A stretch of 64,000 nucleotides of DNA from a bacterium (lineage in GTDB: Bacteria > Zixibacteria > MSB-5A5 > WJJR01). Position 1 is the first letter of the stretch, and every line of letters starts with the position of its first letter. A model generated the notes under the pieces. That model ran no database searches, was not told the origin of the DNA, and saw only the letters and a program-made list of their open reading frames with translations. The stretch lies in NCBI GenBank assembly GCA_035559435.1, contig DATMBC010000055.1, positions 45,859 through 109,858 of the forward strand, written 5' to 3'. This document shows positions 1-42,405 of this stretch, piece by piece. Both the position numbers and the translations under genes were made by a program.

Positions 1-698
1 TGGATCTTGTCCTGATCTTGGTCGAAACGAGGGAGGAGCTTGTCAAGCAGTTTAGCGTCCCCTTCCTCGTATCTTCGATAAACCGCATAGGAGACTAGGT
101 CCGCGGCTTGGAGTAGGCGGGTAGTCTTCGAGTCCGCAAACGCTGGGGCGTCAGCGTAGTTCTTTACTCTTCCGAACTTGGTCCCTTTTCGTCGGTATTC
201 CAAAAGCAGTTTGTCCAGGTGCCCAGTGTACCGTTGCGAGTCCAAGACCATCAGACCTCGATTTCGGTCGCGTCTTTGATCTTTTTCGGCGCCCACAGGC
301 GCATTTGTCCGATTCAAGAAGGCGTCGAAGTGCCCACAGAGCTCATGAAAAGACTTCTCGACTGGATCATCATGGCCAAATGACGATTTGTGCATCGCCA
401 CTCCGAACAGCATGAGGCCTCTCGGATTCACATCAAGGATGGCTTGGCACAAATCTTGCAGTATCGCGTCGCGCATCTTGCTCTGGAACTGACGCCAAGT
501 CCCTCGACCCGCGCGAATGTTGCTTGAATGGAACTCAATCGGTGATGTCATATCAGGAAACCACTTCTCCTGCACTCGATCGAAAGACTCACTAAGGTAG
601 TATGCCTGGTTCTCATAGACAGCCACGGCTCCCATGACGAAGTACTCGCCCTGTCCCATGGCAGGTCGTCCCGATTCGTCGACGTAGAGAAGGAACAT
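1..698 (-). CDS. DUF3800-domain protein (C-terminal end runs off the window start)
   Basis: Manual minus-strand translation from ATG at 698 gives MFLLYVDESGRPAMGQGEYFVMGAVAVYENQ... and later ...TTRLLQAADLVSYAVYRRYEEGDAKLL.... These are the N-terminal YxDESG and C-terminal QxADxxxY motifs typical of DUF3800. There is no in-window stop, and the region is ~50% GC versus ~67% elsewhere. The six-frame track omitted this ORF because it has no stop in the window. Confidence 0.6.
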   Translation of the reverse strand, partial: MFLLYVDESGRPAMGQGEYFVMGAVAVYENQAYYLSESFDRVQEKWFPDMTSPIEFHSSNIRAGRGTWRQFQSKMRDAILQDLCQAILDVNPRGLMLFGVAMHKSSFGHDDPVEKSFHELCGHFDAFLNRTNAPVGAEKDQRRDRNRGLMVLDSQRYTGHLDKLLLEYRRKGTKFGRVKNYADAPAFADSKTTRLLQAADLVSYAVYRRYEEGDAKLLDKLLPRFDQDQDKI

Positions 699-902
699 AT
701 ATGGAGAATACCCCAGAGGCGGCAAACAGGGCAAAAAAAAAGCAGACCCGGTGGGCCGAGGCCCAACGAACCGCGTAAGGCAGTCCTCCGGAGTCGCTAA
801 CTACTTATTCGTACTCTTTCAGCAGAAGTTTGACTCTTTTTTAGATATCGAAGCAAATGTCGTCGCCGCGATGCTAACCAGTTGATTCACAACGCATTAC
901 TG

Positions 903-987
903 TGGTGCGCGAGGCGGGATTTGAACCCGCACGGGTTGCCCCACCACCCCCTCAAGATGGCGTGTCTGCCAATTCCACCACTCGCGC
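903..987 (-). tRNA. tRNA-Leu, anticodon GAG, type II with long variable arm, CCA encoded
   Basis: The reverse complement folds as a cloverleaf: acceptor GCGCGAG/CTCGCGC, anticodon stem CCATC/GGTGG with loop TTGAGGG (anticodon GAG), long variable arm, T-arm GCGGG-TTCAAAT-CCCGC, discriminator A and CCA. Total length is 85 nt. Confidence 0.9.
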
Positions 988-1036
988 ACGTGGTGTGTAC
1001 CGCCGCCCATCGAGGTCCACGGGCGTCACACAAGAC

Positions 1037-1492
1037 CTATCGCGGCGAATCGGTCGGATTCGGCGGCGTCTGCGCCGGCTGCTGCTGTGTCTGACCCGCC
1101 TGCTGATTCTGCTCCGGGTTCAACTGGTCAATCGGCGTCGGCTGGGTCGTCGCCGGCTGCGTCTGATCGGTTGTGGTCGTCGCGGGCGCCACAGGCGGCA
1201 ACTGGCTGGCCGCCTCCTGCACCGCGCTCTCGCCCTGCAGACCGCCAGTGGCGGTGCTGGTCGAGGGATTCAGAAACGACAGGACCAGCGCCGAGGCGAA
1301 AAACGAGATCGCCAGCACCGTGGTCGCCTTGGCCAGGAAGGTCGCCGCTCCACGGCCGCCGAAGACCGTGCCGGTCATCCCGCCGCCCCCGAAGGCGCCG
1401 GCGAGACCCTCGCCCTTGGCCGACTGCAACAGGACCGAAATGATCAAGCCCACGCAGATCAGAAGATGAATGCCGATGAAGATTCCGTACAC
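1037..1492 (-). CDS. secG: preprotein translocase subunit SecG with a Pro/Thr/Gln-rich C-terminal extension
   Basis: The N-terminus MYGIFIGIHLLICVGLIISVLLQSAKGEGLAGAFGGGG...TVFGGRGAATFLAKATTVLAISFFASALVLS matches the SecG two-TM pattern. The secG-tRNA-Leu neighbourhood is classic. Confidence 0.85.
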   Translation of the reverse strand: MYGIFIGIHLLICVGLIISVLLQSAKGEGLAGAFGGGGMTGTVFGGRGAATFLAKATTVLAISFFASALVLSFLNPSTSTATGGLQGESAVQEAASQLPPVAPATTTTDQTQPATTQPTPIDQLNPEQNQQAGQTQQQPAQTPPNPTDSPR

Positions 1493-1573
1493 ACGACCTC
1501 CAATTGTTCCTCAGTCCCACTGGCAAGCAAAAAAGCAGATTCCTCGCTTCGCTCGGAATGACTCTGCAATCCT

Positions 1574-2332
1574 CTAAACCGCGGCACGGATGATGGCGTC
1601 GAACTCGTCGGCGATAAGCGATGCGCCGCCGACCAGCGCGCCATCAATGTCCGGATCCGCCAACAATCCCTTCGCGTTGTCCGCCTTCACCGAGCCGCCA
1701 TACTGGATCCGTGCACGCTCACCCACGGTTGCGCCAAATCGCTGCGCCAGCCAATGGCGGATGAACCGGTGCATTTCGCCGGCCTGGGCCACCGTCGCGA
1801 CCTTGCCGGTGCCGATCGCCCACACTGGTTCATAGGCGATCGTGACTTTCTCCATCTGCGCTTCGGTCAGGTCCTTCAGGCCGCCGGCCAACTGCCGCTC
1901 GACCACCTGCTCGGTCTGGCCCGACTCGCGTTCTTCCAGAGTTTCACCGACGCAGACAATCGGCCCAAGCCCGGCGGTCAACGCCGCCTGGACCTTGCGA
2001 TTGACCCCCGCATCGGTCTCGCCGAACAACTGCCGCCGTTCGGAGTGTCCCAAGATAACCAATTGGCAGCCAACCGTCAACAGCATGCCCGCCGAGATTT
2101 CCCCGGTGAACGCTCCCGAGGCCGCCTCATGCATGTTCTGCGCCCCCAACATGATGCGGCTGCCGCGCAGGTAGTCGGCGGCCGGATATAACGACACATA
2201 AGGGGGGAAGATCGCCACATCGGCATGCTTCCAGCCCGCTTCCCGCTTGTGGAGCGCCGCGCACAACTGCATCGTGGTCGGGACATCCCCGTTCATCTTC
2301 CAGTTGCCGGCGATAAATGGTTTCCGGGTCAT
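1574..2332 (-). CDS. tpiA: triosephosphate isomerase
   Basis: [15 protein letters not shown]..., [16 protein letters not shown] and GGSVKADNA are TIM signatures. Length is 252 aa. Confidence 0.95.
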
Positions 2333-2416
2333 ATCAGCCCTGATGGGCGCCTACGCCTCCGGCGCGCGCCGTGATGTGGTCATGCCCGTGCGCTGTCGCC
2401 GTGCGGCCCGCGCGCC

Positions 2417-3616
2417 CTATTTGTCATTGAGCGCCGCCACTCCGGGCAGGATCTTGCCTTCGAGAAACTCCAGCGAGGCACCGCCGCCGGTCGAGATGTG
2501 TGAGATGTGCTCGGCGACACCGGCCTGATGCACCGCCGCCACCGAATCGCCACCGCCGACCACGGAGATCGCGCCACGGTCGGTGGCATGCGCCACCGCT
2601 TGTGCGACGGCCTTGGTGCCTTCATCGTATGGGGGCGTCTCGAAGACCCCCATCGGGCCGTTCCAAAAGATTGTCCCGGCTTGGCTGAGCACGTCGTCGA
2701 AGTCCTTGATCGTGTGCGGGCCGATGTCGTATCCGGCCATGTCGTCAGGAATCGACTCGACGGCAACGATCTGGTGCATCGCCTCCGGTGTCAGGTCGGC
2801 CGCCACCACACAATCCCACGGGAGAATGATCCGACGGCCGTCTTTCTCGGCGTCGCGGAGAATCCCTTTGGCGGTGTCCACCAGGTCCTCTTCGACCAGC
2901 GATTTGCCGACCGGTTTGCCCTGCGCCTTGAGGAAGGTGAACGCCATCCCGCCACCGATGAGAAACGTGTCCACCGTCTTCATCAGATTGGTCAACACCT
3001 CGAGTTTTCCCGAGACTTTGGCGCCACCGAGGATCGCGACGAGTGGCCGCTTCGGATTGGTCAGCAGACGTCCCAGATAATCGAGTTCCTTTTCCATCAG
3101 GTAGCCCGCGACGGCGGTGCGGAGGAACTTGGTCACACCCTCGGTTGAGGCGTGCGCCCGATGCGCGCTGCCGAAAGCGTCGTTCACGTATATTTCGGCG
3201 CAGGCGGCCAGACGACGCGCAAACTCGGGGTCGTTCTTTTCCTCGGCGGCGTGGAAACGGACATTCTCCAGCAGGCAGATGTCGCCGTCGTTGAGGATGC
3301 GGCAGCAGTTCTCGGGTTTAAGACCGATGCAATCTTCGGAAAACCCGACCGGCCGGCCGATCAGGCGGCTGAAATGCTCGGCGACCGGGCGGAGGGAATA
3401 CTTCGGATCGGGCCCATTCTTGGGACGCCCCAAATGCGAGACCAGGATGACCCGTGCCCCGGCGTCGACCAGCCGACGGACCGTCGGCAGCGCCGCCACC
3501 AGCCGCGTGTCATCGGTGACTTTGCCGTCCTTGATCGGCACATTGAAATCGACGCGCACCAGGACCCGCTTGCCGCGCACCTGCCCGATAATGTCATCAA
3601 TGGTCTTCTTGTTCAT
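2417..3616 (-). CDS. pgk: phosphoglycerate kinase
   Basis: [39 protein letters not shown]... gives a 399-aa product. The track ORF has a spurious 66-aa N-terminal extension, so the start was trimmed to the conserved MNKK. Confidence 0.95.
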
Positions 3617-3656
3617 CAGTCTCTCTTCAATCGCCAATCGCCGATCGTCAATCGCC

Positions 3657-4652
3657 TCAATCGTGCATCCGCGCCAGCATCTCCACCACACGGCAGGAGA
3701 AGCCCCACTCGTTGTCGTACCACGAGAACACCTTGACCAGATTGCCGTTGGCGCGCGTCTCCCTGGCGTCGAAAATCGAGGAGTGCGGATCGCCCACAAT
3801 GTCCATCGAGACAATCGGGTCCTCGCAGTAGTAGAGGATGCCCTTCATGGGACCCTCGGCGGCTTTCTTCATCGCCGCGTTGATCCCTTCCGCCGTCGCC
3901 GGTTTGGCGGTGACACAAGTCAAGTCAACCAGCGACCCATCCGGCACCGGGGCGCGCACCGCCACGCCGTCGAGTTTGCCTTCCAGCTGCGGCAGGACCA
4001 GGCCGATGGCCTTGGCCGCGCCGGTCGAGGTGGGGATGAGCGACATGGCCGCGGCACGGGCCCGGCGCAGGTCCTTGTGCGGCAGATCGAGAATGCGCTG
4101 GTCGTTGGTGTAGGCGTGCACCGTGGTCATGTATCCCGACACGATGCCGTATTCAGCATCCAGCACCTTGGCCACCGGCGCCAGACAGTTGGTCGTGCAG
4201 GAGCCGATCGAAATGACCATGTGCTTTTTGGGATCGTAGTCCTTGTCGTTGACGCCGATCACGAAGGTGCCGTCGACCTTCTTGGCCGGCGCGGAGATGA
4301 GCACGCGCCTGGCGCCGGCGGTCAGGTGCGCCGCGGCCTTCTCACGATCGGTGAACAGCCCTGTCGACTCGAGCACCGTCTCGGCGCCCAGTTCCTTCCA
4401 CGGCAACTTTGTGGGATCCTTTTCGGCGGTCACCTTGATACGCTTGGCGCCGACCACCAGCGCGTCACCGTCGGCCTTCACGGCCACGTCGAGACGGCGA
4501 TGGATGGAGTCGTACTTGAGCAGGTGCGCCATCGTCGGGGCGTCGCAGATGTCGTTGATGCCGACAATGTCAATCTGCGGATTGTTCATCGCCGCGCGGT
4601 ACACCAACCGTCCGATACGTCCGAATCCATTGATCCCCACTTTGATTGCCAT
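3657..4652 (-). CDS. gap: glyceraldehyde-3-phosphate dehydrogenase
   Basis: [21 protein letters not shown]... and SCTTNCLAP are present, with a 331-aa product. The track ORF extension was trimmed. Confidence 0.95.
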
Positions 4653-4723: not shown

Positions 4724-5419
4724 CTAACGATACATGTAGGCGGCTCCGATGAGCACCATGGTTCCCGAGTAGTCTTTGACACCGAATAACTCTTTGTCGA
4801 ACTTGGCGCGTTGATATTTGACCGTCCCGGTCAGGCAGAACGACGGCGACAGGACCAGATTGGCCCCGGCGCCAAAGTAGTACCCCAGCGCCGTGCGCGA
4901 TTCGGTGTCGAACCCGATCAGATTCGACCGCGCCAGATTGATCTCAAACAGCTCGGTCCCGACCACGAGCGACCCGCCGGCGCGCAACGAGGGCTGGAGC
5001 TTCTGTTGCGTCCGTTTGGCCATGGGGTAGAGGATGATGCCGGCGCTGAGCGGATAGATGGTCGCATCGCCGAAGATGTCCTCCTCGCCGGTCCGCACCC
5101 GCAAATCGCCGCGGTTGATCGCGCCGATGCTGAAGTCGAGATTGAGAATGCCCGTCATGTGGGGCTGGTAGAAAAACTCGAGATGGAAGGCGGTGTTGGA
5201 CGCATCGAGACGGGCGTTGGGTTCGGTGATCTCGTTGCCCAGATCGCTGGTGAACCATGGCCCCAGTTGCCCGCCGACCAGCGCCTTGCCCCACTGGCCC
5301 GGTGTCGGCTCCTGGCGCGCTTCCTTCGGTACGCCCATCGGTTGCGCCGCCAGCGGCCCGGCCATAAGCAGTGCCGCCAGCACGGCCGTCATCAACGCGA
5401 TCCCTGAGATTTTGATCAC
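4724..5419 (-). CDS. hypothetical secreted / outer-membrane beta-barrel-like protein
   Basis: The N-terminal signal peptide is MIKISGIALMTAVLAALLMAGPLAAQ. Alternating hydrophobic beta-strand patterns are present, and the C-terminus is ...GAAYMYR. Confidence 0.45.
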   Translation of the reverse strand: MIKISGIALMTAVLAALLMAGPLAAQPMGVPKEARQEPTPGQWGKALVGGQLGPWFTSDLGNEITEPNARLDASNTAFHLEFFYQPHMTGILNLDFSIGAINRGDLRVRTGEEDIFGDATIYPLSAGIILYPMAKRTQQKLQPSLRAGGSLVVGTELFEINLARSNLIGFDTESRTALGYYFGAGANLVLSPSFCLTGTVKYQRAKFDKELFGVKDYSGTMVLIGAAYMYR

Positions 5420-16557: not shown

Positions 16558-17688
16558 CTACTTCCGCACACGCCATAGCGCGATCAGCCCTGCCAGCAAG
16601 CACAGGACATTCGGCGTCCAGGCGGCCACGATCGAGGCATGGGGAACCCAGGCAGGATACAAGTCGGCCAGGAGCGGACGCAACGCGCCGCTGTGCCCCA
16701 GCGACCGGAAGATTTCGTACAACACGCGCACTACGAACGTGATCATCATCGCGATGCCGAAATTCAGCGCCATGCCCGCGTGACGCGTCCGTGCCGCGAT
16801 CGGGAACCCGATCATAACCACGATCAGATTGATGAAGGGGAAGGCGATCTTCAACGCCAACTCGGTTTCCTCAAGCGTTGGATTGCCGCCGGTGCCGCGC
16901 AGACGCGCCACCGTCTGCTTTAGCTCCCCGTAGGTCATCTGCTGCGGGTTGACCCGCTTGCGGACCACATCCTCGGGCGTTTCCGACCAGGCGGGGAAAG
17001 CTGTGACGTTGAATGGCTCGTACGACACCACACTGTCGCCGGAGGGGGAGAAATTGCGGATGCCGCCGTCTTCGGCCACCCACGCCGACTCCTGATACCA
17101 GATTCGTTTCATCTCGACCGTCTGGGTCAGACGGCCGTTGTCGATTGTTTGCACCGTCACATCGGTGCCGAGATTCTGCTTGGTGTTGAAGGTCTTGAAG
17201 TGGTAGACGCGTCCGCCGCCGCCGACGAGAAAGACATTTTGCAGCAGCAGCCGCGCCGGCTCCGCGGTTCCCTTGATCAGCCGCTCGCGCAGATCGGCGC
17301 GGTTGCGCTCGCAGCGCGGGTAGATGGTCTCGCCGGCCATGAAGACCAACACCGTGACAACCAGCCCCATTGCCAGGAAGGGCGCCGACAGCCGCCACAG
17401 TGACAGCCCGGCGGCGCGCATCGCCACCAGTTCGTTGGTCTTGGCCAGGAATCCGACGGCAAAGAGAGTCGCCAGCAGCACCGCGACCGGCGTCACCAGG
17501 ATTAGCACATACGGGCTGTAGTACAGGTAGTAGAGCGCGACATAGACAAAGGGCACGCCCTTGTCGATGAACTTGTCGATGTTTTCCACCAGGTCGACGA
17601 TGATCGAGATCGCCCAGAAGGCGACCAGCGCCCACAGCAGACTGAAGACGAACTTGCCGATGAGGTAGCGATCAATGCGTATCAACAT
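16558..17688 (-). CDS. lptG: LPS export ABC transporter permease, LptF/LptG (YjgP/YjgQ) family
   Basis: MLIRIDRYLIGKFV... with six predicted TM segments and a large periplasmic loop. It is paired with an upstream paralog. Confidence 0.8.
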   Translation of the reverse strand: MLIRIDRYLIGKFVFSLLWALVAFWAISIIVDLVENIDKFIDKGVPFVYVALYYLYYSPYVLILVTPVAVLLATLFAVGFLAKTNELVAMRAAGLSLWRLSAPFLAMGLVVTVLVFMAGETIYPRCERNRADLRERLIKGTAEPARLLLQNVFLVGGGGRVYHFKTFNTKQNLGTDVTVQTIDNGRLTQTVEMKRIWYQESAWVAEDGGIRNFSPSGDSVVSYEPFNVTAFPAWSETPEDVVRKRVNPQQMTYGELKQTVARLRGTGGNPTLEETELALKIAFPFINLIVVMIGFPIAARTRHAGMALNFGIAMMITFVVRVLYEIFRSLGHSGALRPLLADLYPAWVPHASIVAAWTPNVLCLLAGLIALWRVRK

Positions 17689-42262: not shown

Positions 42263-42336
42263 GCGGGAGTAACTCAGTTGGCTAGAGTCACAGCCTTCCA
42301 AGCTGTTGGTCGCGGGTTCGAATCCCGTCTCCCGCT
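42263..42336 (+). tRNA. tRNA-Gly, anticodon UCC (no encoded CCA)
   Basis: Acceptor GCGGGAG/CTCCCGC, D-arm ACTC...GAGT, anticodon stem ACAGC/GCTGT with loop CTTCCAA, T-arm GCGGG-TTCGAAT-CCCGT. Length is 74 nt. Confidence 0.9.
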
Positions 42337-42405
42337 CTCACCTTGAAGAACCACACGCGCCGGATCGTCCGGCGCTGTCTGCCAACCCTCACTCGGAGAC
42401 CACAC

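Follow-up and report, generated by a model that had tools for sequence, protein, structure and literature searches.

A DUF3800-VI RNA and its DUF3800 gene in a compositionally foreign segment beside tRNA-Leu(GAG) of a Zixibacteria genome

Type III toxin-antitoxin (TA) and abortive infection systems (ToxIN, CptIN, TenpIN) share a layout in which a promoter is followed by a structured RNA, a terminator and a nuclease gene. Another group of RNAs precedes or follows genes for DUF3800 proteins, which have been predicted to adopt an RNase H fold (PMC7736814, PMC10910872) and have been linked to retron type VII and to Cas12a2/Cas12a3/VI-F loci (PMC7736814, PMC10910872, PMC13594972, PMC12669027). Weinberg et al. 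described eleven DUF3800-associated RNA motifs in 2017, several of them followed by Rho-independent terminators, and gave no functional hypothesis; in the sister motif DUF3800-I, the RNA occurred both before and after the gene and in both orientations (PMC5737381). In the present study, we analysed a stretch of 64 kb from a Zixibacteria genome (GenBank assembly GCA_035559435.1, contig DATMBC010000055.1, positions 45,859 to 109,858), hereafter the window, whose left end carries a DUF3800 gene preceded by a DUF3800-VI RNA. Our favoured explanation, with a probability of about 0.5, is that positions 1 to about 895 are the right part of a horizontally acquired insertion of about 1.7 kb, carrying a self-contained, mobile module of an RNA and a predicted nuclease that probably serves defence or addiction. 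The literature, Pfam and Rfam already cover the gene family with its RNase H-like fold, the RNA partner and the link to mobile elements, and the locus is a further example in Zixibacteria. The DUF3800 family, with eleven unrelated RNAs as partners, has been an open puzzle since 2017, and the locus adds an example from a poorly sampled phylum.

The DUF3800 gene and its upstream RNA

The DUF3800 gene lies on the minus strand at positions 1..698, which hold the first 232 of its 256 codons; the remainder lies left of the window. The original prediction had assigned this open reading frame (ORF; 698..1) to DUF3800 from its YVDESG and LQAADLVSY motifs. The assignment was borne out by a match to Pfam DUF3800 (PF12686) with 61.6 bits against a cut-off of 21 (E 1.8e-16), covering profile positions 1-149 of 149, and both motifs were present (YVDESG at residues 5-10, LQAAD at 196-200). 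They correspond to the N-terminal DE and C-terminal QxxD described for DUF3800 (PMC7736814), here D7, E8, Q197 and D200, four residues that were invariant in 32 sequences. The invariant residues, among them D7, E8, S9, G10, H57, D125, R147, Q197, D200, H233, H237, C245, C247 and C250, were all kept in this protein, and they include a C-terminal cluster, H-x3-H...C-x-C-x2-C, that was invariant in the subfamily. The subfamily comprised 308 representatives at 50% identity (E <= 1e-30), nearly all of them single-domain proteins of about 250 amino acids. NCBIfam gave no match for the DUF3800 protein, and PHROGs matched it to one family of unknown function.

To represent the fold, a structure model was made for P0013, a full-length homologue that is 62% identical to the window protein. 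The AlphaFold2 model had a predicted local distance difference test score (pLDDT) of 90.3 and a predicted template-modelling score (pTM) of 0.90, and its best Foldseek matches in the PDB were RNase HII, H2 and HIII, with E from 7e-5 to 3e-3 and a probability of about 1.0. The RNase H-like fold expected by the original prediction was thus recovered in the model of a close family member. At the sequence level, DUF3800 was the only Pfam hit of the protein at E <= 1, with no hit to RNase_HII, and a profile search of PDB sequences returned neither an RNase H nor a solved DUF3800 structure. With the fold modelled confidently, the protein is a predicted RNase HII-like nuclease.

The RNA was detected by a cmscan search of window positions 1-3000, in which Rfam family RF02915 (DUF3800-VI) matched the minus strand at 744..796 with 37.9 bits against a gathering score of 35 (E 1.5e-5), covering model positions 1-52 of 52. 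The motif is 53 nt long and consists of an outer stem, P1, around two hairpins, P2 and P3. Both the minimum free energy fold from RNAfold and the centroid fold gave P1, P2 and P3 as in the consensus; the z-score against shuffled sequences was only -1.46. A U9 tract (733..741, minus strand) begins 2 nt after P1 and ends 34 nt before the start codon, and P1 and U9 together form a terminator-like 3' end, with terminator-like sites called at 745-760. The distance from the end of the motif to the DUF3800 start codon on the same strand is 45 nt. The original prediction had described a GC-rich hairpin and a T9 tract that separate the gene from the tRNA. Both exist, but they are no plain terminator: the hairpin is the inner part of the DUF3800-VI RNA, the conserved partner of the gene. 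For annotation, a "terminator" before a DUF3800 gene is worth checking against Rfam.

The pairing of RNA and gene was evaluated with the Rfam model on 38 related loci and with a covariance model built in this study from 20 copies (R1) on 83. At its gathering score, the Rfam model placed the RNA 8-90 nt upstream of the gene, on the same strand, in 17 of the 38 loci. R1 found it upstream and on the same strand in 55 of the 83 (E <= 0.003), as well as in 8 viral contigs and in Pseudomonas phage Marin. The same model had a single match in the window and none in about 87 kb from host relatives lacking the DUF3800 gene. Over about 60 loci, the RNA was always upstream of the gene and on its strand, and the start codon followed 8-100 nt past the motif. 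The helices were supported by covariation in the 20 copies, where 96% of cells were paired, compared with 34-47% in slid-partner controls, and 13 of the 20 pairs had compensatory changes. Three P2 pairs and the junction residues were invariant in sequence.

We then compared the ends of the expected transcript in 56 copies, namely the window and the 55 related loci. A promoter of the form TTGACn-N16-18-nAnnnT was present in 35 of them, and its -10 element ended 4-8 nt before P1, except in L086, where the distance was 20 nt; therefore, the transcript is expected to start at the motif. At least six T residues occurred within the 12 nt after P1 in 45 of the 56 copies, compared with 4% of random 12-mers. 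In L113, the U tract directly abuts the ATG, so the gene must be transcribed through the motif. Some loci carried additional copies. Two tandem DUF3800-VI RNAs precede one gene in L093 (317-424) and in L115 (44-219), the second copy in L115 having its own TTGACA promoter, and a degenerate extra copy lies upstream in L107.

The related loci also indicated mobility. The GC content of the DUF3800 gene was lower than that of its flanks in 32 of 33 loci, by a mean of 9 points. An all-against-all BLASTP comparison of 715 flanking ORFs from 84 loci revealed no neighbouring gene shared by more than five loci, and in the example loci the module stood alone among unrelated housekeeping genes. In 8 of 85 loci, the module had a tRNA gene at a distance of about 800 nt or less, which by a rough and not rigorous estimate is 2-5 times the chance expectation. 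The module of L084 follows tRNA-Lys(CTT) by 55 nt, much like the arrangement in the window. A further module, at 1269-2742 of L165, lies downstream of tRNA-Leu(GAG) and then tRNA-Ser(GCT), in the same orientation as in the window and about 475 nt off.

Phages carry the gene as well, and plasmids carry related ones. In phage Marin (OR683406.1), the DUF3800 gene (16785-17528), with the RNA upstream of it, is located in the immunity region, on the same strand as a CI-like repressor gene and a gene for a BRCT-domain protein. Such a position in a temperate phage is typical of exclusion genes expressed by the lysogen. This phage of Pseudomonas can be cultivated, and the copy beside its CI repressor offers a test system. 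More distant DUF3800 homologues (about 30% identical) were found on 53 plasmids, including ColE1-type plasmids of 3.6-7 kb with DUF3800 as the main cargo. Small mobilisable plasmids of this kind, with hardly any other cargo, occur in E. coli, Klebsiella, Shigella and Citrobacter. One of them, pETEC_5 of E. coli E24377A (NC_009791.1), has the DUF3800 gene at 1619-2311, and DUF3800-VI RNA was not detected on it; therefore, a different partner RNA may be present there. Taken together, the pairing of DUF3800-VI RNA and DUF3800 protein is conserved, mobile, compositionally foreign and without another partner, and the identity of the two parts at this locus is highly probable.

Possible roles of the RNA

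The comparison yielded a layout in which a strong promoter is placed to start transcription at P1, the nuclease gene is preceded by a terminator-like end, protein partners are lacking and the composition is foreign nearly everywhere. We tentatively suggest that the RNA would be made in excess as a discrete transcript, since in most relatives a consensus promoter directs the start to P1 and the RNA has a terminator-like end. Expression of the nuclease gene would then depend on read-through past that end, and the RNA may bind and control the nuclease, either inhibiting it like an antitoxin or serving as a cofactor that it requires. Such a unit could work on its own in defence or addiction, travelling on phages and entering the chromosome at variable sites. 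If the RNA does control the nuclease, this would be a new architecture of RNA-protein defence or addiction. We consider this mechanism possible, at rather less than even odds.

At the present locus, the most parsimonious origin of the RNA would be read-through from the secG-tRNA-Leu operon, because the window copy lacks a recognisable promoter and no other terminator follows the tRNA; P1 and U9 would also be the operon's only terminator. A more specific version sees a minimal autonomous RNA-controlled nuclease, that is, a type III-like TA or abortive infection system on an RNase H fold, which travels as a cassette of about 1 kb on temperate phages and at tRNA-adjacent sites and which has here lost its own promoter, being driven by the secG-tRNA-Leu operon and terminating it. 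This version is speculative, and to our knowledge no RNA-controlled TA or abortive infection class built on an RNase H fold has been demonstrated experimentally to date.

Several observations weigh against the defence or addiction module. The Rfam score of the window RNA is barely above the threshold (by 2.9 bits), and its P1 contains a bulged U and a C-U mismatch. No recognisable sigma-70 promoter was found for it in a scan of positions 600-1100, and only a degenerate GAGTCA...GAATAA could be seen by eye upstream. Because of the marginal score, the P1 defects and the lack of a recognisable promoter, the window RNA could be a decaying copy. The RNA is also single-copy in nearly all loci, two copies being found only in L093 and L115. 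On the protein side, the Foldseek matches of the model had modest TM-scores of 0.34-0.50 at a sequence identity of 10-15%. A search for defence-system profiles in PADLOC (PADLOC-DB 2.0), suggested by the original prediction, gave PDC-M04A as the best match, which was not significant (E 0.04, 11 bits). There is no experiment showing toxicity, RNA binding or anti-phage activity for stand-alone DUF3800 proteins. In addition, in a transposon sequencing (Tn-seq) study of Legionella (10.1101/2020.10.01.323287), a DUF3800 gene came out as essential together with antitoxins, with which a protective role of the protein fits better than a toxic one.

The RNA that is always upstream and on the same strand fits a purely cis-acting leader equally well, and this is the main rival, which we likewise put below even odds. 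The RNA would then be a 5' leader or attenuator of the DUF3800 mRNA, in which P1 and the U tract terminate transcription and a signal or the DUF3800 protein itself relieves or enforces the termination, with no function in trans. The Rfam type of RF02915 is indeed "Cis-reg". The position of the RNA directly before the start codon in all of the roughly 60 loci is that of a leader, transcription of the gene in L113 can only pass through the motif, and the promoter is placed so that the transcript begins at P1. Against a leader without any partner, the variable side and orientation of DUF3800-I RNA relative to its gene favour a partnership of RNA and protein (PMC5737381). The invariance of the three P2 pairs and of the junction suggests a protein recognition site, and eleven unrelated RNA structures accompany one protein family; both observations are nevertheless compatible with autoregulation through binding of the protein.

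Foreign DNA beside tRNA-Leu(GAG)

The composition of the window changes sharply at its left end. The GC content of positions 1-900 was 52.2%, compared with a mean of 64.2% for 900-nt windows over the remainder (sd 1.8, minimum 58.6), which corresponds to z = -6.5. The GC content at third codon positions (GC3) was 0.59 for the DUF3800 gene and 0.75-0.87 for secG, tpiA, pgk and the gene of an aminoacyl-tRNA synthetase (aaRS). The GC discontinuity claimed by the original prediction therefore stood on recomputation, and codon usage showed one as well; the predicted figures of 50% against 67% were slightly overstated. The drop begins directly 3' of tRNA-Leu(GAG), at its CCA end, as had been claimed. 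This tRNA gene, called by ARAGORN (Rfam tRNA, 49.5 bits), occupies 903..987 on the minus strand, with the encoded CCA at 903-905. It is the last gene of a conserved block, pgk-tpiA-secG-tRNA-Leu, whose protein genes were assigned by Pfam on the minus strand (pgk 2417-3814, tpiA 1574-2332, secG 1037-1492) and which was also present in the relatives L004, L184 and L185. Between the tRNA and the RNA motif lies an AT-rich spacer (797..902, minus strand) in which the scan of 600-1100 found no recognisable sigma-70 promoter (0 promoter-like sites) and no terminator of its own.

To extend the locus to the left, we used L001, a Logan contig of 5.4 kb that was recovered by a protein search through its 100%-identical DUF3800 product. 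Its first 959 bases are the reverse complement of window positions 1-959 with 0 mismatches, and it reaches 4.4 kb beyond the left edge of the window. The DUF3800 gene is complete in it (262-1032, 256 amino acids) and is followed in order by a 191-residue ORF, the gene for 3-methyladenine glycosylase I (Tag), a RibD_C/DHFR-like gene, three ORFs and the C-terminus of a class II aaRS. The 191-residue ORF had a GC3 of 0.56 and no Pfam or PADLOC family match. Further along, GC3 was host-like in Tag (0.80), RibD_C (0.80) and the aaRS (0.87) and foreign in the three ORFs (0.47-0.61).

The comparison with relatives defined the extent of the foreign DNA. The TpiA of the window is 82% identical to that of a Zixibacteria metagenome-assembled genome (MAG), which puts the window in this candidate phylum. 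The closest MAG contigs stop before or inside the tRNA (L002 and L003) and L184 stops 144 nt past it, so that they are uninformative on presence. The closest relative with a spanning contig, and the single informative one, is L185 (157 kb, TpiA 74% identical). It has secG, tRNA-Leu(GAG), a plain hairpin-T terminator, 330 bp, Tag, the aaRS gene and recO in this order, with neither DUF3800 nor a GC dip at the site. In a blastn comparison, L001 aligned with L185 at 1-65 (tRNA), 1798-2346 (Tag) and 4911-5415 (aaRS), and DNA homology stopped 8 nt beyond the CCA, at about window position 895. Core genes syntenic with L185 thus resume in L001 with Tag at 1.8 kb and the aaRS gene at 4.9 kb. The whole foreign piece, comprising the DUF3800 module and the 191-residue ORF, is L001 66-1797, where 1.73 kb stands in place of the 330 bp of L185. 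The part inside the window, delimited by GC, GC3 and the blastn alignment and without strand, is 1..895. The comparison with relatives called for by the original prediction thus came out in its favour, the module being absent from the same site in this one relative. In more distant Zixibacteria, the block on the secG side was kept and the sequence past the tRNA was entirely different; the tRNA is therefore a synteny breakpoint.

A second indel, of 2.56 kb (L001 2347-4910), separates Tag from the aaRS gene and is absent from L185. Within it, a second patch of low GC3 (0.47-0.61) spans L001 3006-4790, some 2-3.8 kb beyond the left edge of the window, between RibD_C and the aaRS gene. Its three ORFs had no Pfam hits; one of them (3006-3680, minus strand) had a weak PADLOC match to HEPN_IX (E 9e-4) and an R-x-x-D-Y HEPN-like signature. 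A further observation concerns the assemblies themselves. Position 1 of L001 and position 5854 of L002, two independent metagenome contigs, break at the identical base, window position 959 inside tRNA-Leu. A tRNA common to several species probably creates a branch of the de Bruijn graph here, and therefore the insertion site is rarely spanned by short-read assemblies.

According to the original prediction, the segment is the edge of a classical integrase-mediated island or phage-like element in the 3' end of tRNA-Leu, with an integrase, further cargo and a distal attachment (att) site further left. The low GC, the position at the tRNA 3' end and the absence from L185 are in keeping with such an element, as are the frequency of tRNAs near related modules (8 of 85 loci, roughly 2-5 times a rough chance expectation) and the second low-GC3 patch at 3-4.8 kb along L001. 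However, a Pfam scan of the seven ORFs of at least 60 residues in the 4.4-kb extension revealed no integrase or recombinase domain and only Adenine_glyco, RibD_C/DHFR_1 and HGTP_anticodon. A second match to the 26-nt tRNA 3' end (up to 3 mismatches) was absent from L001, and no family of direct repeats (seed 8) over this contig involved the tRNA. The tRNA is intact, with no duplication of its 3' half, the host-like, syntenic Tag and aaRS genes interrupt and end the region, and homologous modules are solitary in unrelated housekeeping contexts. The expected leftward remainder of an island and its distal repeat thus did not appear, and the integrase-island reading, which we consider improbable, is largely refuted for this contig. 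The results support horizontal acquisition next to tRNA-Leu but not an integrase island.

Two other readings concern the RNA and are weaker still. In the first, the RNA would be a guide or scaffold of an RNA-directed nuclease, like those of RuvC-fold OMEGA, TnpB and IscB systems. An RNase H-like fold with an obligate, adjacent structured RNA invites this idea, as does the company in which DUF3800 domains are found, namely CRISPR effectors and retrons (PMC10910872, PMC7736814). However, the RNA of about 53 nt is fully engaged in three helices, its loops and P3 vary but are short, the alignment contains no variable single-stranded segment resembling a guide, and transposon ends or repeats were lacking, so that we regard this role as very improbable. 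Least credible of all is that the hairpin and T9 are a mere intrinsic terminator of the secG-tRNA-Leu operon with a fortuitous RF02915 match. In favour of this, no other terminator-like site follows the tRNA, the tRNA of L185 is succeeded by a plain terminator, and the score exceeds the threshold by just 2.9 bits. Against it, the match extends over the full model at E 1.5e-5 and all three helices form; the motif precedes a DUF3800 gene by 45 nt, just as it precedes such genes in about 60 other loci; and neither the remaining 63 kb of the window nor about 87 kb from relatives lacking the gene contained a further match. The DUF3800-VI RNA may well also serve as the operon terminator, and both functions can coexist.

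Some features of the window lie apart from the module. SecG has 151 residues, with a low-complexity C-terminal extension rich in Pro, Gln and Thr past the 70-residue SecG domain, and this extension is common to the relatives L002, L004 and L185. At 1-kb resolution, GC was not anomalous near the sole other tRNA of the window, tRNA-Gly(TCC) at 42263-42337 on the plus strand. Inside pgk, the Glutamine-II riboswitch model of Rfam gave a match below its threshold (2910-2946, minus strand; 20.1 bits against 33), which is almost certainly due to chance.

Comparison with known systems

The retron type VII effectors and the TPR-DUF3800 proteins of Cas12a2, Cas12a3 and VI-F loci share with the window protein the Pfam domain and the N-terminal DE, and they are set in defence systems involving structured nucleic acid (PMC7736814, PMC10910872, PMC13594972, PMC12669027). 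In contrast to the retron-linked DUF3800 proteins, which lack QxxD, the subfamily at this locus keeps it. No reverse transcriptase, CRISPR array, cas gene or TPR domain was found here or in the 84 related loci.

RNase HII, H2 and HIII (PDB 1EKE, 1IO2, 3PUF and 2D0A) are the best structural matches of the modelled homologue. Common to RNase HII and this DUF3800 protein is an N-terminal strand that ends in adjacent Asp and Glu, after which come a small residue and Gly (DEAG and DESG, respectively); further invariant Asp residues are present. The differences are the identity of 10-15%, the lack of a Pfam RNase_HII hit and the extra invariant C-terminal His/Cys cluster of DUF3800; a "catalytic rearrangement" has been reported for DUF3800 (PMC10910872).

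The insertion shares with tyrosine-integrase islands in tRNA genes its position at the tRNA 3' end, its low GC and its absence from the relative L185, and differs from them in having no integrase and no att duplication and in comprising only about 1.7 kb of foreign DNA here.

The RNA agrees with DUF3800-VI (RF02915) in its three helices, its conserved P2 and junction, its place directly upstream of a DUF3800 gene on the same strand and the U tract that follows. It departs from the family in its score near the gathering threshold, in the bulged U and one mismatch of P1, in the lack of a recognisable promoter (a consensus one was present in 35 of 56 copies) and in its Zixibacteria host.

With regard to type III TA and abortive infection systems, there are two differences: the DUF3800-VI RNA is single-copy and not a tandem array processed by the toxin, and the modelled DUF3800 fold appears RNase H-like rather than ToxN/Kid-like. 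The likeness lies in the arrangement. Both are small, self-contained units with the same layout and an atypical composition, and they are found on phages, with homologous genes on plasmids. As in type III systems, a putative terminator would stand between the RNA and the nuclease gene, represented here by the U9 tract after P1 and, among the 56 copies, by a T-rich tract in 45.

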